55,396 bases of DNA from IMG/VR virus record IMGVR_UViG_2721755728_000002, one strand, 5' to 3'. Made by a program: the position numbers and the translations under genes. This document shows, one piece after another, positions 4,360 through 19,230 of this stretch (the stretch's first letter is position 1; every line of letters starts with the position of its first letter). Below the pieces are notes generated by a model, which saw nothing but the letters and a program-made list of their open reading frames with translations, had not been told where the DNA came from and did no database searches. This stretch comes from a virus. Lineage: Duplodnaviria; Heunggongvirae; Uroviricota; Caudoviricetes.

Positions 4360-4927
4360 TATCGCGTCCTCAACAATGAATTTTGTGATGCAGTGCCTGG
4401 TGCCTCCAGGTGACGTTAACCAGTTAACAATTAACGCCGGATACAGAGAATCCACCCATAACACTGTTTTTGGTTTTAACTGTTCCGCGTGCGCTTAGCC
4501 GCATTCACCGCATCACAAAATTCACTTTAAAAAGGGCGGCAGAGCAGTCACGGAGTAAAACTGATACCGCCAAACGTCACCAGAAAATTGATAACAGAGG
4601 GCGTTGCAGCGGGGTTGTCACTTAAGCGTATGGTCAACCTGACAACCCGGTGTCCTCAACGGGGGAAGGAATAACCCCGCCATACTTACCGCCGCGCCAT
4701 TTCGCGGATTGCCACAACCGGAAGCGCACGGTCGACGAAAATTTAACGACAGGCTATCTATGAACCAGCTACCTCGCCGTGCGCTTTCGCGTTATGGTCT
4801 GACTTTTCAGGGAAATATCCTTTCAGTAAACTGTCAGTGCCGGATGCTCACCCGTGTCCGGCGCACGCACTCCACCTCATCCGTGGAGAACTCCTTAATT
4901 ACCAACCTTAGCTTCGTTGGTTAGCTA

Positions 4928-9097: not shown

Positions 9098-9868
9098 ATG
9101 GAAACCGTATTTGACGCACTGAAAGCACTGAAAAGAGCCTCTTCACAGGTAGTGGCGGCCAGCCTTGGAATCAGTCGTGAAGAGGCTGTCAACGAGCTGT
9201 GGGAACTCAAAAGAAATGGCGTCGTTGATAAAACTGGTCACACCTGGTTTCTGGCTGGCGAAGGTGAATCCCGGGTAACCGAAGAGCGGCCAGTAAAATC
9301 TGAAGCACAGGATATGCTGACCGGGGAGGTCGAACAAAAAGTTACCGCAGACATGATGATTGAGTTTATCGGTCAGGATGGGGCTAAAACGTGTGAGGAA
9401 CTGGCGGGTAAGTTCGGTGTCAGTACTCGCAAGGTTGCTTCCACGCTGGCGGTGGTAACCGCAACGGGGCGGCTGGCACGCGTTAATCAGAACGGTAAAT
9501 TTCGTTACTGCATGCCGGGCGATAATTTACCAGCAGAGCCGAAAGCCGCGCTGGTAACGGAAAGTGATGGTAAGGCCTTTCCTCAGCCAGCAGGTGCTGC
9601 GTTACCAGTCCGGGAAGCCGCAACACAGGAAGAAATTAAAACAGAAACTGTGGCGGACATTGTGCAGCCGTTGCCATCGTTTACCGAAACGCAAGCAGAT
9701 GAGCTGATTTTTCCGTCCCTTCGCAGGGCAAACCTGGCGCTGCGCAGGGCGAAAAGTGATGTTCAGAAGTGGGAGCGAGTCTGCGCCGCGCTGCGGGAGC
9801 TGAACAAGCACCGGGATATTGTTCGACAGATTACTGATTCTTCCCGCCGTGTTGTATCGGAAAAGTGA
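9098..9868 (+). CDS. Hypothetical phage protein (DUF1627-like)
   Basis: ORF with GGAGGA RBS 7 nt before ATG 9098 (track start 9080 is TTG). Confidence 0.5.
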   Translation: METVFDALKALKRASSQVVAASLGISREEAVNELWELKRNGVVDKTGHTWFLAGEGESRVTEERPVKSEAQDMLTGEVEQKVTADMMIEFIGQDGAKTCEELAGKFGVSTRKVASTLAVVTATGRLARVNQNGKFRYCMPGDNLPAEPKAALVTESDGKAFPQPAGAALPVREAATQEEIKTETVADIVQPLPSFTETQADELIFPSLRRANLALRRAKSDVQKWERVCAALRELNKHRDIVRQITDSSRRVVSEK

Positions 9869-9883
9869 TTGCCGGAGGCGCTT

Positions 9884-10306
9884 ATGGCAAAAGTATTTAC
9901 ACAAGAAGAGCGGGAAAAAATTAAAGGGCAGGTTGTTGAACTAGTACGCCGGAGTGGGCGCGAGACGTTACGGCAACTGGAAGCCAAGACAGGTGCGACA
10001 AGATATCTGATGAGCGTTCTCGCCAGAGAGCTGGTTGCCAGTGGCGATGTATACAACTCTGGTTACGGGTTATTCCCGTCTGAACAGGCTCGTAAGGACT
10101 GGCAAAATGCCCGCAAAAAACTATCTAGGGCAAAGGTGAAGAAACCATCTGTGGTTGATCCGGATCTTATCTGGTCATTACCAGACGGAGAAATACGCCG
10201 CTACGACAGGCGTCTGAACATAATCTGTAGCGAGTGCCGGAAGAGCGAAGCTATGCAGCGTGTACTGGCTTTCTATCAGGGTAATTTTCAGAAGGTGCTG
10301 TTGTGA
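9884..10306 (+). CDS. Hypothetical phage protein
   Basis: ORF with GGAGG RBS before ATG 9884 (track start 9869 is TTG). Confidence 0.5.
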   Translation: MAKVFTQEEREKIKGQVVELVRRSGRETLRQLEAKTGATRYLMSVLARELVASGDVYNSGYGLFPSEQARKDWQNARKKLSRAKVKKPSVVDPDLIWSLPDGEIRRYDRRLNIICSECRKSEAMQRVLAFYQGNFQKVLL

Positions 10307-10316
10307 GCCAAATTAA

Positions 10317-11511
<1,195 letters not shown>

Positions 11512-11610
11512 TTAACAATCGGAACTTCGTGAAGAGAAAGAATAATCCAAATCTGAATAATTAAGTTCAGCACTGTAAATAAAATTTAATCCTTAACTGG
11601 AGGTATATTT

Positions 11611-11823
11611 ATGTTAAATACACAGAAAGCCATTAATGCGGAAAAATATAACGAGTGGGCAAGAAAATTCTCTGAGCAGATTTTTAAAATTACTGGCGAT
11701 GAGAATGTGGCAAAAAATGAATTAGAACCGTGGACACCTGAAGGAAACGCACCAAATTATTGCTGGTGGGAGGTTGATCCGGTTGATGCTGCAAATGAAG
11801 CCATGAGTTACCACAACGATTAA
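11611..11823 (+). CDS. Hypothetical small protein (AT-rich gene)
   Basis: 70 aa, GGAGG RBS; AT-rich. Confidence 0.5.
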   Translation: MLNTQKAINAEKYNEWARKFSEQIFKITGDENVAKNELEPWTPEGNAPNYCWWEVDPVDAANEAMSYHND

Positions 11824-11855
11824 TGTCGGGAGGCCGCCCGAAAGGGCGGTAAGAA

Positions 11856-12074
11856 ATGACTACATTATTCAGAAAAGAATATCCGCAAAAAAGTAGGGCG
11901 ACAGAATTTTTGTTTCTCATTCTGTTTATCGTATTGATGATACCGATATCCCCTCTAATTTTTGTCTGGGCAATCGGGAAAATAATTGAGCCAGTTACTG
12001 AATTGTATACCGACGTTGTATGGGCGTCGTTCAACACACTGCACAATAAAATTAATCCGTATAAGGAAAACTGA
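11856..12074 (+). CDS. Small membrane protein
   Basis: 72 aa with a long hydrophobic stretch (FLFLILFIVLMIPISPLIFVWAIG). Confidence 0.5.
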   Translation: MTTLFRKEYPQKSRATEFLFLILFIVLMIPISPLIFVWAIGKIIEPVTELYTDVVWASFNTLHNKINPYKEN

Positions 12075-12075
12075 T

Positions 12076-12339
12076 ATGGCAACTTTGACAAAAAAAGAAC
12101 GGGCATGGTTAAACGAATTACAGGAAGTTCTTGATCGCTGTCCATCACCGAAAAAAATTGGCTTTTACACCATTGGCGATAAAAGCATTTACCTGTATGA
12201 CCTACGCCGCATGGATGAAATCATGGAGGCTCTTGATAATCGTTCGTCGATGGATTGGTGTGTTGCTGTTCATGATATGAATGCAGGGTTTGATGAAAAG
12301 ATTTTGTTCCCCTCATCAGTTGAAAGCACTGCGGGTTAA
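12076..12339 (+). CDS. Hypothetical small protein
   Basis: 87 aa from MATLTKKERAWLNEL; ATG 2 nt after the upstream stop. Confidence 0.5.
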   Translation: MATLTKKERAWLNELQEVLDRCPSPKKIGFYTIGDKSIYLYDLRRMDEIMEALDNRSSMDWCVAVHDMNAGFDEKILFPSSVESTAG

Positions 12340-12349
12340 GGAGTAACAC

Positions 12350-13219
12350 ATGACCACTATTACCAAAGAACGTATTGAATTGTTCATTAAAAATCCGGTT
12401 GAAAACGGGCTTACCCGTGGTGAACAAATGGAACTGGCACGGATTGCGCTGGCATCGCTGGAAGCAGAGCCGGTGGCAAAGATTATAGCTCATTACCCAT
12501 TAGGGGTTGACGTAGGCAAACAAAAATTCGTACAGGCCATTAGAGAGCTTCCTGACTTTGGCGGATATCTATTTGCCGCCCCTCCAGCGCCGATAGTGCC
12601 GGAAGAAATGTATTGGCAGGATGCGCCAGTTGAAGGCAGCAGCAAAGCGGCTGCATACGCTACAGGCTGGAACGATTGCCGCGAAGCCATGCTTCAGTCC
12701 GGAAACTTTCGGGAAAATAAAGATTCGTCAACCAATAATTTTCGGAAAATCCCGGAAGCGTCAACCAGCTCTCCGGTAACTCCGGCTCTTCTGCCTGGTG
12801 GTTTCACCATTGAGGAGGCGAAGGAATTACATGAAGACCTGGTACGCAGCCACATAAGCAAGGCCTTAAGTGGCGAAAAGATGAAAAAGAAAGATCGCGA
12901 TGCTGATTTGCGCTGGATTCATGGCGTTATAGTTCAGGCAGCGTGGTTTGTAAAAGCATCACTGGAGCAGAATGCACTATCGGGCAACTATCCGGTAACT
13001 CCGGATAGTTGGATAAGCTGTAGTGAGCGAATGCCGGATACCAAAACAGCCGTTCTTGTTGCCGTGGAGTTTGACAGGAAAGGTGACTGGCGAATGAAAT
13101 GGGCGACTTACATCCCGGGTCATCCTGACGCTAATGATGGGTGGATAATTCCTGGTGCGTCGTGGAAACCGTCACACTGGATGCCGCTACCAGAACCGCC
13201 GCAGGAGGTGCGCCAATGA
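12350..13219 (+). CDS. Hypothetical phage protein with DUF551-like C-terminus
   Basis: 289 aa; GGAG RBS. Confidence 0.55.
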   Translation: MTTITKERIELFIKNPVENGLTRGEQMELARIALASLEAEPVAKIIAHYPLGVDVGKQKFVQAIRELPDFGGYLFAAPPAPIVPEEMYWQDAPVEGSSKAAAYATGWNDCREAMLQSGNFRENKDSSTNNFRKIPEASTSSPVTPALLPGGFTIEEAKELHEDLVRSHISKALSGEKMKKKDRDADLRWIHGVIVQAAWFVKASLEQNALSGNYPVTPDSWISCSERMPDTKTAVLVAVEFDRKGDWRMKWATYIPGHPDANDGWIIPGASWKPSHWMPLPEPPQEVRQ

Positions 13220-13299
13220 ACTGGCCTGAAGCATTTGCAATTACAGGCGTTGCTATGGCTATCGCTTTTTTAGTATATGTTATTTGTCGGTGGGGGTAA
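13216..13299 (+). CDS. Very small hydrophobic peptide
   Basis: 27 aa; ATGA overlap with upstream stop. Confidence 0.3.
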   Translation: MNWPEAFAITGVAMAIAFLVYVICRWG

Positions 13300-13439: not shown

Positions 13440-13685
13440 ATTCATTACGATATGGGAATTCCCATATCGGGTAAAAACGGTTTGCGGGAAAAGGAGAGTT
13501 AAGTAGAATTGCTGCGGGTGCTTGAGGCTATCTGTCTCAGGCATGAACACCAAAAGGCAGATAGAGAAAAGCCCCAGTTAACATTACGCGTCCTGCAAGA
13601 CGCTTAACATTAATCTGAGGCCCAATCTATGTCTCACAAATGTAGGTTAGCCTCTTACGTGCCGAAAGGCAAGGAGAAGCAGGCT

Positions 13686-13841
13686 ATGAAGCAGCAAAAG
13701 GCGATGTTAATCGCCCTGATCGTCATCTGTTTAACCGTCATAGTGACGGCACTGGTAACGAGGAAAGACCTCTGCGAGGTACGAATCCGAACCGGCCAGA
13801 CGGAGGTCGCTGTCTTCACAGCTTACGAACCTGAGGAATAA
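13686..13841 (+). CDS. hok: Hok/Gef-family type I toxin
   Basis: 51 aa MKQQKAMLIALIVICLTVIVTALVTRKDLCEVRIRTGQTEVAVFTAYEPEE; typical Hok membrane peptide; in-frame upstream extension from 13629. Confidence 0.8.
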   Translation: MKQQKAMLIALIVICLTVIVTALVTRKDLCEVRIRTGQTEVAVFTAYEPEE

Positions 13842-14288: not shown

Positions 14289-15344
14289 GTGCGGGTATTA
14301 CTTCGACCTGTTCTGGTACCGGAACTCGGGCTGGTGATCGTTAAGCCGGGCCGTGAATCCATGCCGGTATTCCACAATACCCGGGTACTGGTGGAGCCGG
14401 AACCGAAAAGCATGCGTAATCTGCCGTCCGGGGTCGTTCCTGCCGTTCGCCAGCCGCTGGCGGAGGATAAATCATTACTGCCATTTTTCAGCGACGAACG
14501 AGTGATTCGTGCTGCTGGTGGCGCTGGCGCATTGTCTGACTGGTTACTGCGCCATGTTAAATCCTGCCAGTGGCCACACGGTGATTATCACCACAGTGAA
14601 ACCGTCATTCACCGTTATGGTACCGGCGCAATGGTGTTGTGCTGGCACTGCGACAACCAGCTGCGCGACCAGACCTCCGAATCACTCGGGCAACTTGCTC
14701 ACCAAAACCTGTCTGCATGGATGATTGACGTCATACGCCATGCAATGAATGGCTCGCAGGAACGGGAATTATCGCTGGCTGAATTATCCTGGTGGGCGGT
14801 CCGCAATCAGGTGGCGGACGCGCTACCGGAAGCGGTATTACGTCGTTCGCTGGGGTTGCGTGCGGAAAAAATCCGCTCAATGTACCGTGAAAGCGACATC
14901 GTACCGGGAGAGCAGACCGCCACCAGCATACTGAAGCAGCGCACAAAAAATCTTGCGCCGCTGCCTCACGCCCACCAGCAAAACCCGCCACAGGAAAAGA
15001 CGGTGGTCAGCATTGCCGTTGATCCCGAGTCACCGGCTCAGTATCTCCAGCGCCAGAAATCACAACGGGAAGAGATGCCTGTATACACGCGCTGGGTAAA
15101 AACGCAGAAATGCATGACGTGTGGCAATCAGGCAGATGATCCGCATCACATCATTGGTCATGGACTGGGAGGGATGGGAACAAAGGCTGATGATTTGTTT
15201 GTTATTCCGCTGTGCCGTAAATGCCATAGCGAACTACACGCCGGGGTAAAAGATTTTGAAGAAAAACACGGCAGCCAGCTGTTGTTGCTGATTCGTTTTT
15301 TAATGCACGCGAGAAATTCGGGTGTTCTGAAGTGGAAAGCATAA
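14289..15344 (+). CDS. DUF968 (YdfU-like) protein with C-terminal HNH-like zinc-finger motif
   Basis: 351 aa; C-terminal CMTCGN...HHIIGH...CRKCH; GTG start with GGAGG RBS. Confidence 0.65.
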   Translation: MRVLLRPVLVPELGLVIVKPGRESMPVFHNTRVLVEPEPKSMRNLPSGVVPAVRQPLAEDKSLLPFFSDERVIRAAGGAGALSDWLLRHVKSCQWPHGDYHHSETVIHRYGTGAMVLCWHCDNQLRDQTSESLGQLAHQNLSAWMIDVIRHAMNGSQERELSLAELSWWAVRNQVADALPEAVLRRSLGLRAEKIRSMYRESDIVPGEQTATSILKQRTKNLAPLPHAHQQNPPQEKTVVSIAVDPESPAQYLQRQKSQREEMPVYTRWVKTQKCMTCGNQADDPHHIIGHGLGGMGTKADDLFVIPLCRKCHSELHAGVKDFEEKHGSQLLLLIRFLMHARNSGVLKWKA

Positions 15345-15710
15345 ATGACTGAACGCATAGAATTTGTTTTGCCTTACCCGCCAACGGTGAACACTTACTG
15401 GCGTCGTCGTGGCAGCACATATTTTGTATCAAAAGCCGGGGAGCGTTATCGCCGGGCAGTGGCGCTTATTGTTCGCCAGCAGCGGCTGAAATTAAGCCTG
15501 TCCGGAAGGTTGGCAATAAAAATTATTGCAGAACCACCGGATAAGCGCCGCCGTGACCTGGACAATATCCTGAAAGCACCACTGGATGCGTTGACGCATG
15601 CCGGACTTCTCATAGACGACGAGCAGTTTGATGAAATCAATATTGTGCGCGGTCAGCTCGTTCCTGGTGGGCGGCTGGGCGTGAAGATTTACAAAATTGA
15701 GAGTGAGTGA
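15345..15710 (+). CDS. rusA: Holliday junction resolvase RusA
   Basis: 121 aa, RusA family (LPYPPTVNTYW...DLDNILKAPLDAL). Confidence 0.85.
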   Translation: MTERIEFVLPYPPTVNTYWRRRGSTYFVSKAGERYRRAVALIVRQQRLKLSLSGRLAIKIIAEPPDKRRRDLDNILKAPLDALTHAGLLIDDEQFDEINIVRGQLVPGGRLGVKIYKIESE

Positions 15711-16261
15711 TCGTAAATATGATATACCCGGAAATTACAGGCAAAAGCGGCGAGCATTTACGTCTAAAAACGCTGGAAGCCGTCTGGATCCAGGGGAAAT
15801 TACGGATGTGGGGGCGTTGGTCGTATATAGGTGGTAGCAAAACAGGAAATATGTTCAATCAGTTGCTGGCATCCAAAAAACTGACAAAAACCGCAATCAA
15901 TGAAGCCCTGCGTAGAATCAGGGAGTCAGGGATTGATAAACCAGAGCTGGAAGCATTCTTGCGAGAGATGATCGCTGGCAGACAGAAGAGCTGGTTGTCT
16001 CACTGTACTGATGCAGAGGCGTTACGCATTGATGGGGTGATAAGTAAAGCGCTTGCACGTTATCCTGGATTGATTGATATCCTGCGGCAAAGATACGAAG
16101 GGCGGGGGATGAGTAAACGCAAAATGGCTGAATTGTTGAATGAGGTTCACCCTGAGTGGTGCTATGCAACATGCCGCAATCGTATAGATATGTGGCTGAG
16201 AATAGCTGAGTTTATTCTGTATCCACTGATGCGAGATGCATTTTCTTTTACTGACGCTTAG
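15707..16261 (+). CDS. Putative late-gene antiterminator (Q-like), family uncertain
   Basis: 184 aa after rusA, followed by a terminator-containing leader; assignment by position. Confidence 0.4.
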   Translation: MIVNMIYPEITGKSGEHLRLKTLEAVWIQGKLRMWGRWSYIGGSKTGNMFNQLLASKKLTKTAINEALRRIRESGIDKPELEAFLREMIAGRQKSWLSHCTDAEALRIDGVISKALARYPGLIDILRQRYEGRGMSKRKMAELLNEVHPEWCYATCRNRIDMWLRIAEFILYPLMRDAFSFTDA

Positions 16262-16426
16262 AATCTGGAGGGCGTTTGTTGTTGCACGAAGAGGATTTTT
16301 GGCTGGTAGTAAGGTTTGTGCAGTTTTAGAAAAAAAGCTTGTATTTTTAGCCATAAACTGTTTCAATCCAGCTACGCTTCGCAAAGCTGTACCGCGAGGC
16401 GAATAGCAGACATGGACACCTGAAAG

Positions 16427-16451
16427 AACCCGCTTTATGCGGGTTTTTTTA
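16427..16451 (+). terminator. Rho-independent terminator (tR'-like)
   Basis: aacccgc-tttat-gcggg followed by tttttttat, in the leader downstream of the Q-like gene. Confidence 0.55.
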
Positions 16452-16573
16452 TGCCTGAAAAACGGCACAGAACATTAAACGCGCTGGTAGTTGTGAATAC
16501 TGGTCTTTCAGCTTGCTGGCTTTTTCGACAAGAGGTATTGGTATGTCACGTTAACCAGAAAAGGGAAAAAGGC

Positions 16574-16771
16574 ATGCTAAAACAGCAGGATATGACCGAA
16601 ACCGCCAGAGTGGTGTTTAATGAATTAAGCGTCACCGAACCGGCGACCGTCGGGGAAATTGCGCAGAATACTTACCTTTCACGCGAACGCTGCCAGTTAA
16701 TACTGACTCAGCTTGTTATGGCGGGTCTGGCAGATTATCAGTTCGGTTGTTACAGACGCCTTCCGCAGTGA
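16574..16771 (+). CDS. Hypothetical small protein
   Basis: 65 aa from MLKQQDMTETARVVF; purine-rich RBS. Confidence 0.35.
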   Translation: MLKQQDMTETARVVFNELSVTEPATVGEIAQNTYLSRERCQLILTQLVMAGLADYQFGCYRRLPQ

Positions 16772-16921
16772 AGGCTTTTTAATTTGTGGTAATGGGCGGC
16801 TGGTGGGTGTTAGCGGCACCTGCCAGCCATCTGCTCATGCGTTGGGGTCACAAGCAAACCTCAGGCCCATCTGCTTTGCGCAAAAGCGGCATGAGCCTAT
16901 CAGAGAAGTGCTTATTGATCT

Positions 16922-17971
16922 ATGATTAATACTGTAAAAATATCCAGTTGTGAGTTAATCAACGCTGATTGCCTGGAATTTATCCAGACCTTACCGGAAA
17001 ACTCTGTCGATCTGATAGTCACAGACCCGCCATACTTTAAAGTGAAGCCCGAGGGCTGGGATAACCAGTGGGAGGGCGACGATGATTACCTGAAATGGCT
17101 GGACCAGTGTCTGGCGCAGTTCTGGCGGGTACTGAAGCCTGCCGGAAGTCTTTACCTGTTCTGTGGTCATCGCCTGGCATCTGACACCGAAATCATGATG
17201 CGTGAGCGCTTTAATGTGCTGAACCACATTATCTGGGCGAAGCCGTCCGGACGCTGGAACGGGTGCAATAAGGAAAGTCTGCGGGCGTATTTTCCGGCAA
17301 CAGAGCGCATTCTGTTTGCAGAACATTATCAGGGACCGTATCGCCCGAAAGATGATGGCTATGTGGAGCAGGGGCGCGAGCTAAAACAGCACGTCATGGC
17401 CCCGCTGATTTCTTACTTTCGTGATGCGCGTAAATCACTGGGAATAACGTCAAAACAGATAGCGGAAGCCACCGGAAAGAAAAACATGGCTTCGCACTGG
17501 TTTGGTATCAGTCAGTGGCAGTTACCGAACGAGGGTGATTACAACAAATTGCAGGCGTTGTTTGCGCGTGTTGCGGCAGAAAAACATCAGCGCGGGGAAC
17601 TGGAAAAGCCACACCACCAGCTGGTCAGCACATACAGTGAGCTGAACCGGCAGTATACGGAACTGCTGAGTGAATATAAAAATTTGCGGCGGTATTTCGG
17701 TGTGACGGCGCAGGTTCCGTACACCGATGTCTGGACGCATAAACCGGTGCAGTACTATCCAGGGAAACATCCGTGCGAAAAACCGGCAGAAATGCTGCAG
17801 CAGATAATCAACGCGAGCAGTCGTCCGGGAGACCTGGTTGCAGATTTTTTTATGGGTTCAGGTTCAACGGTAAAAGCGGCGATGGCACTGGGGCGTTGTG
17901 CGATTGGTGTTGAGCTGGAGACCGGACGCTTTGAACAGACAGTCAGGGAAGTTCAGGATTTAATCGTTTGA
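16922..17971 (+). CDS. DNA methyltransferase (N6-adenine/N4-cytosine family, beta class)
   Basis: 349 aa; motif IV DPPY (IVTDPPYF) near N-terminus and motif I FFMGSGST near C-terminus; no adjacent restriction endonuclease. Confidence 0.85.
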   Translation: MINTVKISSCELINADCLEFIQTLPENSVDLIVTDPPYFKVKPEGWDNQWEGDDDYLKWLDQCLAQFWRVLKPAGSLYLFCGHRLASDTEIMMRERFNVLNHIIWAKPSGRWNGCNKESLRAYFPATERILFAEHYQGPYRPKDDGYVEQGRELKQHVMAPLISYFRDARKSLGITSKQIAEATGKKNMASHWFGISQWQLPNEGDYNKLQALFARVAAEKHQRGELEKPHHQLVSTYSELNRQYTELLSEYKNLRRYFGVTAQVPYTDVWTHKPVQYYPGKHPCEKPAEMLQQIINASSRPGDLVADFFMGSGSTVKAAMALGRCAIGVELETGRFEQTVREVQDLIV

Positions 17972-18020
17972 AACGGATGAGATTGCAGAATTAATTACGC
18001 ACCATTATTATTCTGCTCCC

Positions 18021-18096
18021 GGCCCTTTAGCTCAGTGGTGAGAGCGAGCGACTCATAATCGCCAGGTCGCTGGTTCAAATCCAGCAAGGGCCACCA
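18021..18096 (+). tRNA. tRNA with CAU anticodon (Ile2/ileX-like, or Met)
   Basis: 76 nt cloverleaf; acceptor stem GGCCCTT/AAGGGCC plus ACCA; anticodon loop CTCATAA; GGTTCAAATCC T-arm. Confidence 0.8.
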
Positions 18097-18196
18097 TCAC
18101 AAACCGCCATTAGCTTATCAGGAAGAGCAGACGACACCATAACAGGGTTGTTGGTGCGGGGGCGGGTCCCCGATGGCGGTCCATTATCGGTATTCT

Positions 18197-18273
18197 GCGT
18201 TGTTAGCTCAGCCGGACAGAGCAATTGCCTTCTAAGCAATCGGTCAGTGGTTCGACTCCACTACAACGCGCCA
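18197..18273 (+). tRNA. tRNA-Arg (UCU anticodon)
   Basis: 77 nt; acceptor GCGTTGT/ACAACGC plus GCCA; anticodon stem-loop ATTGC-CTTCTAA-GCAAT; GGTTCGACTCC T-arm. Confidence 0.8.
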
Positions 18274-18442
18274 CACTTATTTTCCAGGCTCGCTTCGGCG
18301 GGCCTTTTTTGTATCTGCGCCACGCCCGGCGCATATCAACCACAGAGCCTTTCGGGGGTGAGCTTACGGAGTGGTCAGTGTGACTTTCTCTGTGGGCAGA
18401 TCGCTCCCGGGCGTTGGCTCACCCACCCAAAGGAACGTCACG

Positions 18443-18874
18443 ATGTTTGGAATCTTCAAAAAGAAAACCCGCAGAGCGGCAGCGGAAATTAAAAAGTTTG
18501 AGAAACGCGATCTGGCACAGGCGGTGATTAACGCTGCATACCTGGTGGCCTATGCAGATGGTGAATGCGAGGCATCCGAGAAAGCGAAGATCGAACAGGT
18601 CTTACGTAATCAGCCTGCGTTGTCTGCGTTTACCTCGGAAATTAATGCGATTAGCGCAACTATTATCGGTCAGCTGGATACCAATTTTAAAATTGGTCGT
18701 CGTGCCGCGTTACGCGAGATTGAGGATGTGAAACACGATACGCGTGAAGCGGAAGATGTGCTGGATGTGGCGGTGGCCATTGCGGAGGCAGACGGCGAAA
18801 TTGAGCCGGAAGAGCGCAAGGTGCTGGAAGAGATTGCCGGTGTTCTGGGTCTTCGTCTGGAGAATCACCTGTGA
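18443..18874 (+). CDS. TerB-like (tellurite-resistance TerB fold) protein
   Basis: 143 aa from MFGIFKKKTRR; paired acidic helices typical of TerB; AAAGGA RBS. Confidence 0.5.
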   Translation: MFGIFKKKTRRAAAEIKKFEKRDLAQAVINAAYLVAYADGECEASEKAKIEQVLRNQPALSAFTSEINAISATIIGQLDTNFKIGRRAALREIEDVKHDTREAEDVLDVAVAIAEADGEIEPEERKVLEEIAGVLGLRLENHL

Positions 18875-19080
18875 CGGTAAAACTGCGCCTGGCTGTGGCT
18901 GCACTCCTGCTGTTTCTGGTGGTGATGGTGGATTTCACCAGCAGAATCATGTCGGTGCTGGCGGATGGGGTGCTGGTCTGCGGCATTGTGGTATTGCTGT
19001 GGCCGGTGATAAAAAGAAACAGCCTGCATAATGCTTGGTTTTTTTGTTTGCTGTTTATTAAAAACACTTCTGCATGGTGA
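18871..19080 (+). CDS. Small membrane protein coupled to the TerB-like gene
   Basis: 69 aa, two hydrophobic helices; GTGA start/stop overlap. Confidence 0.45.
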   Translation: MTVKLRLAVAALLLFLVVMVDFTSRIMSVLADGVLVCGIVVLLWPVIKRNSLHNAWFFCLLFIKNTSAW

Positions 19081-19205
19081 ATCCCCCTGTGCGGAGGGGC
19101 GATCAGCAACCAGGTATATGGGATAATCGCGGATTTAGGTGCTGATACTGAATTCACCGGGAGGCACCCGGCACCATACAAGAAAAAGAATGTGCATGCA
19201 AACAT

Positions 19206-19230
19206 GCCCCTCTCCGGAGGGGCTTTTTTA
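19206..19230 (+). terminator. Rho-independent terminator
   Basis: gcccctc-tccg-gaggggc followed by ttttttat. Confidence 0.55.

Follow-up and report, generated by a model that had tools for sequence, protein, structure and literature searches.

An orphan adenine methyltransferase of the M.EcoGII family in a lambdoid prophage and the conserved structured element adjoining its start codon

The window, that is the whole stretch of viral DNA analysed here (55,396 nucleotides), carries at positions 16922–17971 a gene which, as judged from its sequence, encodes a member of the M.EcoGII family of adenine methyltransferases. Taken as a whole, the interpretation that an enzyme of this family, silent in the lysogen and produced late in a Q-dependent manner, would blanket-methylate phage DNA against restriction is, in our opinion, probable. 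The methyltransferase is an unremarkable member of an already known kind of genes. The gene itself adds little, being another allele of a published and commercially used family present in about one third of complete Escherichia coli genomes. The new part is a conserved structured element, together with a small winged-helix ORF, and these provide testable handles on the silencing of such genes.

The methyltransferase and its relation to M.EcoGII

The feature under study is the following.

16922..17971, plus strand: orphan beta-class N6-adenine methyltransferase, assigned to the M.EcoGII family by profile match and alignments, 349 aa

The open frame is uninterrupted from the ATG start through 349 codons, and residues 29–340 of its product match the Pfam profile N6_N4_Mtase (PF01555; E 2.6e-44, 152.2 bits vs. 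a cut-off of 26.7). The catalytic motifs are DPPY (residues 35–38) and FMGSG, corresponding to FxGxG (residues 310–314), and their order, with DPPY in the N-terminal and FxGxG in the C-terminal part, is that of the beta-class. The original prediction of a DPPY-type methyltransferase is thus borne out by the intact frame, the profile match and the position of DPPY; inactive catalytic motifs, which had been regarded as evidence against it, were looked for, and both DPPY and FxGxG are intact. The protein is identical (100%) to WP_000611213.1 of E. coli O26:H11 11368.

M.EcoGII was described, along with M.EcoGI, from E. coli O104:H4 C227-11 (GenBank EGT69837.1; Murray et al. 2018, PMC5778455) and originates from a prophage which its authors call cryptic (PMC5778455). 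[quoted passage not shown] In vivo, about 85% of adenines are modified by it. The enzyme is unexpressed in the lysogen and slows down growth upon expression; the authors proposed an anti-restriction role and noted ‘a very large family’ of such genes in E. coli prophages, phage 1720a-02 included (PMC5778455).

The reference sequence of M.EcoGII was taken from a machine-read supplementary table of PMC11551740 containing reading errors, and for this reason its identity with the window protein is stated as a range, from 316 of 349 residues as machine-read to 320 of 349 (91.7%) after mending three reading slips. An exact look-up of the repaired M.EcoGII sequence gave no match. Both proteins consist of 349 aa without true indels, have the beta-class order of motifs, and are prophage-borne and orphan; they differ in 29 substitutions, 13 of them among the 78 residues of the recognition domain (160–237). 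The residues of the dimer interface (97–110 and 116–140), reported to be invariant in M.EcoGII and its ancestors (PMC11551740), contain a single difference, N98 instead of S98 in M.EcoGII, and N98 is also what each of the three compared ancestors has. As regards 18 of the 29 differences, the window protein shares its residue with one of the reconstructed ancestors Anc291, Anc289 or SUPREM. These were reported to methylate both DNA and RNA, for the most part without sequence specificity (PMC11551740), so that tested non-specific enzymes bracket the sequence space in which the window protein lies. The substitutions at 11 of the 29 positions occur in no tested enzyme. The original prediction, which had correctly described an orphan DPPY-type gene placed between a Q-like gene and tRNAs, missed this family; the identity to M.EcoGII is about 91%.

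According to the published description, M.EcoGII consists of a Rossmann core (1–134 and 260–349), a long charged linker and a four-helix recognition domain (160–237) with a helix-turn-helix (PMC11551740). The solved structures closest to the window protein are the chains 9c3u and 8urk and M.RsrI (1nw8, 1eg2), with E from 2e-24 to 5e-20, and these matches cover the catalytic core, namely residues 8–114 around DPPY and 281–333 around FxGxG. No match for the central region 115–280 was found among solved structures, and neither the structure search nor PMC11551740 gave a PDB structure of an M.EcoGII-type recognition domain. An AlphaFold2 model, obtained from a shallow alignment of 21 sequences of close relatives, has a mean pLDDT of 63 and shows, at this low confidence, helices at 146–173, 177–184, 189–194 and 204–223 and a long helix at 231–255, which are compatible with the published four-helix recognition domain.

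Of 5426 complete E. coli genomes, 169 carry the identical allele and 1938 carry relatives, as many as five copies being present in one genome; on these grounds the gene is under selection. Relatives are also present in 38 phage records, mainly of Stx2-converting phages, at 82–89% nucleotide identity.

Prophage setting, probable late transcription and the proposed role

The neighbourhood of the methyltransferase includes the following features.

14289–15344: DUF968/HNH-like gene, upstream of the methyltransferase
15345–15710: RusA, upstream of the methyltransferase
15707..16261, plus strand: Q-like late-gene antiterminator (Pfam DUF1133 and Phage_antitermQ, PHROG 753)
16421..16451, plus strand: T1, strong intrinsic terminator hairpin with a U-run (folding, alignment)
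16574..16771, plus strand: winged-helix-like ORF of 65 aa (PHROG 331)
16758..16785, plus strand: T2, second hairpin resembling a terminator, with a U-run, which overlaps the small ORF at its stop codon (terminator scan)
18021..18096, plus strand: tRNA with the anticodon CAU, ileZ-type tRNA-Ile2 of Stx phages (ARAGORN, RefSeq)
18197..18273, plus strand: tRNA-Arg (UCU), argO-type
18286..18321, plus strand: T3, hairpin resembling a terminator, with a U-run, where the block in common with Stx phages ends

The predicted location of the gene between the Q-like gene and the tRNAs agrees with these coordinates. The annotation of a near-identical prophage, which is lambdoid and adjoins potC/potD in E. 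coli O26:H11 11368, lists neither a restriction endonuclease nor another methyltransferase, and none was found among the early-region ORFs of the window; the gene is an orphan with no restriction enzyme beside it, as had been suggested. The Q-like gene matches DUF1133 (E 4.7e-101), Phage_antitermQ (28.6 bits vs. a cut-off of 26) and PHROG 753, ‘anti-termination protein Q-like’ (E 8.3e-79), and its product would activate transcription into the methyltransferase. The tRNA at 18021–18096 was called tRNA-Met by ARAGORN; its homologue is tRNA-Ile/ileZ in RefSeq and in the phiP27 record. Beyond the tRNAs there are a TerB-family gene, a DUF3927 gene and a sialate-esterase-like gene.

A ‘DNA methylase’ gene with 82–89% nucleotide identity is found in phiP27 (L24), 1720a-02, Stx2a phage WGPS2 and Stx2c phages, and these phages have in common with the window the whole block 16439–18321, from the T1 terminator through the small ORF, the leader, the methyltransferase, tRNA-Ile2 and tRNA-Arg to T3. 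In the Stx-type phages the tRNAs are followed by stx, whereas TerB-family and DUF3927 genes occupy this place in the window, and the Q genes differ. The order of a Q-like gene, methyltransferase and holin was observed in prophages of Salmonella, Enterobacter and Klebsiella. The Xenorhabdus prophage, scanned on the upstream side, has a Q-like gene upstream of the methyltransferase, and the Yersinia prophage has a holin downstream and no Q match upstream. The Q genes of these loci, including that of the window, belong to five different families. Among 59 scanned loci outside Escherichia, none has a tRNA downstream and two have tRNAs upstream only; the view of the tRNAs as a general part of the module was rejected, because they are confined to the Escherichia version of the cassette.

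T1 folds with −18.2 kcal/mol (z −5.9), a stability that none of 200 shuffles attained, and its hairpin is kept in all five aligned phages, while the sequence upstream of it varies with the type of Q. Position 16439, inside T1, is where the homology to phiP27, 1720a-02 and the Stx2a and Stx2c phages sets in. A Q-specific late promoter upstream of T1 would lead to just such a change of sequence with the Q type, and T1 is probably the tR' of the late promoter. It is known that PR' transcripts of Stx phages halt at tR' in lysogeny (PMC7547250). The promoter scan gave no plus-strand sigma-70 site between the Q-like gene and the methyltransferase, and inspection of 16262–16420 for PR' gave weak candidates only; as PR' was not located, the proposed Q-dependence of the methyltransferase rests on gene order. 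T2 taken alone folds weakly (−9.3 kcal/mol, z −1.1), and its stem is kept in the Stx2c phage with different sequences. T3 has an 8-bp stem with six GC pairs, followed by TTTTTGTATC, and the homology to the four phages stops at its end, at 18321. Rfam matches to AgrB and isrK at 16347–16452 were set aside as chance, since they centre on the terminator hairpin and do not reach the gathering scores.

The following course of events may be proposed. The central helical DNA-binding domain would make no sequence-specific contacts, and this would permit SAM-dependent methylation of adenines in essentially any context. In the lysogen, the methyltransferase would be silent, as suggested by its position downstream of the Q-like gene, with one strong intrinsic terminator (T1) or more in between. 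Following induction, RNA polymerase modified by Q would read through, the methyltransferase being the first protein-coding module of the late operon, and the enzyme would blanket-methylate replicating phage DNA ahead of packaging. Progeny DNA may then withstand many of the restriction systems (types I, II and III) met in the next host, and the price of such methylation would be sensitivity to m6A-dependent type IV enzymes. The structured element (about −135 to +30–60 relative to the start) and the missing Shine-Dalgarno sequence would probably restrain expression further, since such an enzyme is toxic. The earlier guess of an anti-restriction function is broadly in line with the role that was proposed for M.EcoGII.

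The prophage may be defective, and in that case the methyltransferase may never act in this particular strain. It could then be inert cargo, an intact ORF in a decaying, non-inducible prophage without current function in the strain. Such decay is suggested by a DDE transposase ORF in the early region (10349–11365), by the esterase gene, which is split by an apparent frameshift (19445–20158 and 20131–21294), by a frameshift annotated in the portal gene of the 11368 prophage, and by the word cryptic used by the authors of M.EcoGII for their own prophage. However, the ORF together with its upstream element is 100% conserved across many genomes, both catalytic motifs are intact, and inertness within one host would leave the encoded product unchanged. 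We consider this explanation unlikely, though less so than the other alternatives.

Somewhat less probable still is a selected role of the non-specific enzyme other than evasion of restriction, with RNA (late mRNA or the adjacent tRNAs) or host DNA as the target and with host shut-down, regulation of lytic timing or marking of DNA for packaging as possible effects. The methylation of RNA and DNA:RNA hybrids by M.EcoGII, the two tRNA genes located directly downstream of the methyltransferase in Escherichia and the impaired growth of the over-methylated host are consistent with such a role; in addition, protection of phage DNA in the course of infection has been proposed for the M.EcoGII family, and no experimental demonstration of it was found in the literature. 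On the other hand, the activity on RNA is far lower (about 30% of adenines vs. about 90% for DNA), the methyltransferase module is kept outside Escherichia where the tRNAs are absent, and a late gene whose product appears near lysis would bring scant gain from host shut-off. Protection of phage DNA against restriction by an enzyme acting on any adenine remains the reading that we prefer.

Target specificity

It had been expected that the enzyme would have a target motif definable by methylation-aware sequencing. Such a motif is not to be expected in view of the identity of about 91% to M.EcoGII, which acts in any context; 91.7% identity and the position between tested relatives suggest that the window enzyme is likewise non-specific for the context of adenine. 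Homologues in O111 STEC, 92–93% similar, are listed as ‘nonspecific’, and in O111 lysogens no methylated motif was detected besides GATC and CTGCAG (PMC6602927). For this reason, the methylome of a lysogen should bear no trace of the gene, as M.EcoGII is unexpressed in the lysogen and O111 lysogens have no additional motif. Forced expression would be expected to result in near-global, motif-less m6A. The lack of a motif attributable to the gene, which the original prediction treated as refuting it, is the expected outcome for an active enzyme of the M.EcoGII type and does not refute activity.

A sequence-specific orphan methyltransferase with a defined motif, similar to phage Dam or CcrM and serving for site protection or gene regulation, is very improbable: the PGAP label ‘site-specific DNA-methyltransferase’ given to many cluster members, the 13 recognition-domain substitutions relative to M.EcoGII and the sequence specificity of all the closest solved structures (such as M.RsrI, CcrM and M.MboIIA) speak for it, but the PGAP name is generic, the full-length identity of about 91% is to a non-specific enzyme, the differences in the recognition domain mostly match ancestors that are likewise non-specific, and enzymes with as little as about 71% identity to the window protein (SUPREM) are still non-specific. 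The scores of the protein were far below the cut-offs of the site-specific NCBIfam equivalogs NF050803 and NF008572, of the CcrM or YhdJ type (CcrM, 72.3 bits vs. 830; PRK11524, 110 vs. 292). It follows for STEC methylome surveys that no motif is to be expected from M.EcoGII-type genes, and that the automated label ‘site-specific DNA-methyltransferase’ is misleading for this family.

Promiscuous phage adenine methyltransferases of the alpha-class (Drozdz et al. 2012), to the extent that they are described in PMC5778455 where they are cited, resemble the window enzyme in relaxed adenine specificity and a presumed anti-restriction role. As far as the same description goes, they differ from it in having FxGxG first and DPPY last, and in a specificity that is relaxed but not absent.

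The upstream element and its possible function

The region between the small ORF and the methyltransferase contains the following elements.

16790..16921, no strand assigned: structured conserved non-coding element adjoining the ATG
16793–16797 with 16865–16869: helix P0
16798–16809 with 16817–16828: helix P1
16830–16839 with 16849–16858: helix P2
16871–16877 with 16883–16889: helix P3
16922..16981, no strand assigned: first 20 or so codons of the methyltransferase, constrained at the nucleotide level

The 150 nt that separate the small ORF from the methyltransferase start exceed the flanking coding sequence in conservation. The element is 72–85% identical at the nucleotide level in 50 of 80 genome loci of Enterobacterales, and these 50 loci, in which nhmmer detected it in full, represent more than 15 genera; the methyltransferase proteins encoded there are only 64–91% identical. 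A motif scan of viral contigs gave 45 further distinct, closely similar copies, which were excluded from the analysis of covariation. In 119 of the 120 motif-carrying viral contigs, an M.EcoGII-type gene begins 62–64 nt past the end of the pattern, and the 120th contig ends too soon to tell. This set includes a gene 98% identical to M.EcoGII, its closest relative among the viral contigs (L193), which has the upstream element of the window type. The leaders of Xenorhabdus and Photorhabdus are shorter and different from the element. The covariance model R1 gave no instance outside its 55 source sequences.

Covariation was studied in an unfitted MAFFT alignment of 55 distinct copies of the element. 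On the plus strand, this alignment folds into a three-way junction (P0, P1 and P2) followed by the P3 hairpin, with 92.5% of cells paired vs. 30–46% in slid controls and 13 pairs changed on both sides vs. 4–6 in these controls; none of 500 shuffles was equal to it. In P1, 8 of 12 pairs are compensatory, and one pair of P2 is seen as C-G, U-A, A-U and U-G. The minimum-energy fold of the window copy is different, positions −3 to −20 before the AUG being paired with the 3' strand of P2; this alternative plus-strand fold, with the helices GGUCA/UGAUC and AAGCA/UGCUU, is 90% compatible across the alignment, which is support from conservation only.

A three-hairpin fold of the minus strand has 93.5% of cells paired and 14 pairs changed on both sides. 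On this strand U.G pairs take the place of the C.A mismatches seen on the plus strand in P2 and the extended P3 hairpin, the pairing of P2 reaches 98%, and the folding energy is lower in 51 of 55 copies; on the other hand, P1 and the alternative fold contain wobble pairs workable only on the plus strand. A functional RNA of the element would lie on the plus or the minus strand, with P2 and P3 in favour of the minus strand and P1 and the alternative fold in favour of the plus strand.

Some other explanations of the spacer were considered. Coding was rejected, because indels of 1 nt shift the frame among close relatives and there is no common ORF, and P1 as a DNA palindrome or operator is disfavoured by the U.G found at one of its pairs in 22 sequences. 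The promoter scan found no promoter near the element on either strand, antisense included. Rfam 15 gave no match within 16772–16921 at E up to 5; the Salmonella copy of the element, searched against Rfam at E up to 10, had a single chance-level overlap on the minus strand, namely with the Pseudomonas sRNA P26 (16 bits vs. a cut-off of 36, E 0.98).

The ORF of 65 aa belongs to PHROG 331 of unknown function (E 1.4e-37) and has weak winged-helix matches to TrmB, MarR and DprA_WH, all below the cut-offs. A tblastn search located it at the corresponding place in 59 of 80 genome loci, those of Xenorhabdus and Photorhabdus included, and it is present in 110 of 120 viral contigs. Some loci keep the element and have other genes in place of this ORF.

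In phage Mu, a small ORF, com, lies upstream of mom, whose start site is masked by a structured region of the mRNA and whose transcription is under the control of GATC methylation. The window has a small upstream ORF and a structured element at the start site too. The methyltransferase start has no Shine-Dalgarno sequence, the AUG is preceded at a distance of one codon by an in-frame UGA, and the GATC at 16917–16920, located at −5 to −2 of the ATG, is conserved. The likeness concerns function and regulation only and does not extend to the proteins: Mom does not belong to the SAM methyltransferases, and the small ORF of the window is winged-helix-like, whereas Com is a zinc finger. A com-mom-like control of the methyltransferase is put forward as a hypothesis only. 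Mu com-mom and M.EcoGII were paired in a review as silent and toxic.

According to this hypothesis, a dedicated module, made up of the structured RNA of about 135 nt and usually the 65-aa protein, would keep the methylase off until late lytic growth, and we give it an even chance. Within such a module, the RNA may be either a sense-strand translational switch with two mutually exclusive folds or a three-hairpin antisense RNA, the latter comparable to the antitoxin of a type I toxin-antitoxin pair. In the literature searched, we found no mention of the element or of its control module and no account of how a toxic enzyme of the M.EcoGII type is kept silent. Should the element be a switch or an antisense partner, it could be used as a compact off-switch for M.EcoGII-based tools of chromatin and RNA labelling.

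Constraint at the nucleotide level continues into the methyltransferase gene, where the identity at synonymous codons is 0.92 in codons 1–10 and 0.62 in codons 11–20, compared with 0.475 gene-wide and 0.31 to 0.55 in the other 10-codon bins. The first codons contain a consensus hairpin, ACUGU-N8-9-ACAGU, with a conserved inverted repeat, and in the window this hairpin has four pairs only (16931–16934 with 16945–16948).

A conserved element and a small ORF before the methyltransferase gene

The M.EcoGII-family methyltransferase gene is preceded by a conserved non-coding element and a small ORF, as follows:

16574–16771, ORF of 65 aa, PHROG 331 (annotated "unknown function"), with weak winged-helix similarity
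16790–16921, continuing into 16922–16981, conserved non-coding element of about 135 nt, abutting the methyltransferase ATG on its upstream side

The element is shared by more than 15 Enterobacterales genera, contains numerous compensatory base-pair changes and occurs only 5′ of M.EcoGII-type genes. No Rfam family was matched by 16790–16921, and this stretch is a candidate sense leader or a candidate antisense RNA. In the compared loci L015 (3016–3081, E 1e-4) and L038 (3882–3987, E 5e-5), nhmmer gave a second, weak match at another position, covering a portion of the leader; these matches could be partial duplicates or chance hits.

The small ORF is usually located 100–150 nt 5′ of the methyltransferase gene, from E. 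coli through Xenorhabdus and Photorhabdus. A terminator-like hairpin (16758–16785) encloses the stop codon of the ORF, which suggests that translation and termination may be coupled. In the Xenorhabdus and Photorhabdus loci (L054–L084), this ORF and a hairpin similar to helix P1 of the element (e.g., GGCTGGTG...CACCAGCC) are retained, the leader (roughly −110 to −1 relative to the start of the methyltransferase gene) is shorter and different, and the covariance model of the leader gave no detection. Many methyltransferase genes of these loci appear to start with GTG.

A block in common with Stx phages

The region 16439–18321 is a mosaic block with sharp borders, common to phiP27, 1720a-02 and Stx2a/Stx2c phages and consisting, in this order, of a terminator, the small ORF, the leader, the methyltransferase gene, two tRNAs and a terminator. 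In these phages the block is followed by stx, whereas in the window two other genes occupy this position:

18443–18874, TerB-family gene
18871–19080, DUF3927 gene

The tRNA at 18021–18096 has the anticodon CAT and is Met according to ARAGORN; its homologue is tRNA-Ile (ileZ) in RefSeq and in the phiP27 record. The ileZ tRNA-Ile is a lysidine-modified AUA reader, and ATA accounts for 5 of the 17 Ile codons of the methyltransferase gene.

Prophage integrity and other RNA genes

The sialate-esterase-like gene (DUF1737, SASA and DUF6645; 19445–21294) is split in the window into two overlapping ORFs (19445–20158 and 20131–21294), but forms one 616-aa CDS in the near-identical prophage of E. coli O26:H11 11368; the split looks like a frameshift. 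A segment of the window (about 9203–13235) around a transposase ORF is unmatched in the same copy. The prophage of the window may be defective.

Transposase ORF and further RNA genes of the window

4534–4585, minus strand, DicF, Rfam match near dicB
10349–11365, DDE transposase ORF (DDE_Tnp_1 and DUF772) in the early/nin region
13516–13691, sok antitoxin RNA, Rfam match, with hokD close by in the RefSeq annotation
19043–19235, plus strand, STnc100 sRNA gene
19236–19297, minus strand, AgvB anti-GcvB sRNA gene

The convergent STnc100/AgvB pair (19043–19297) corresponds to the convergent sRNAs that have been described downstream of the moron site in EHEC prophages.
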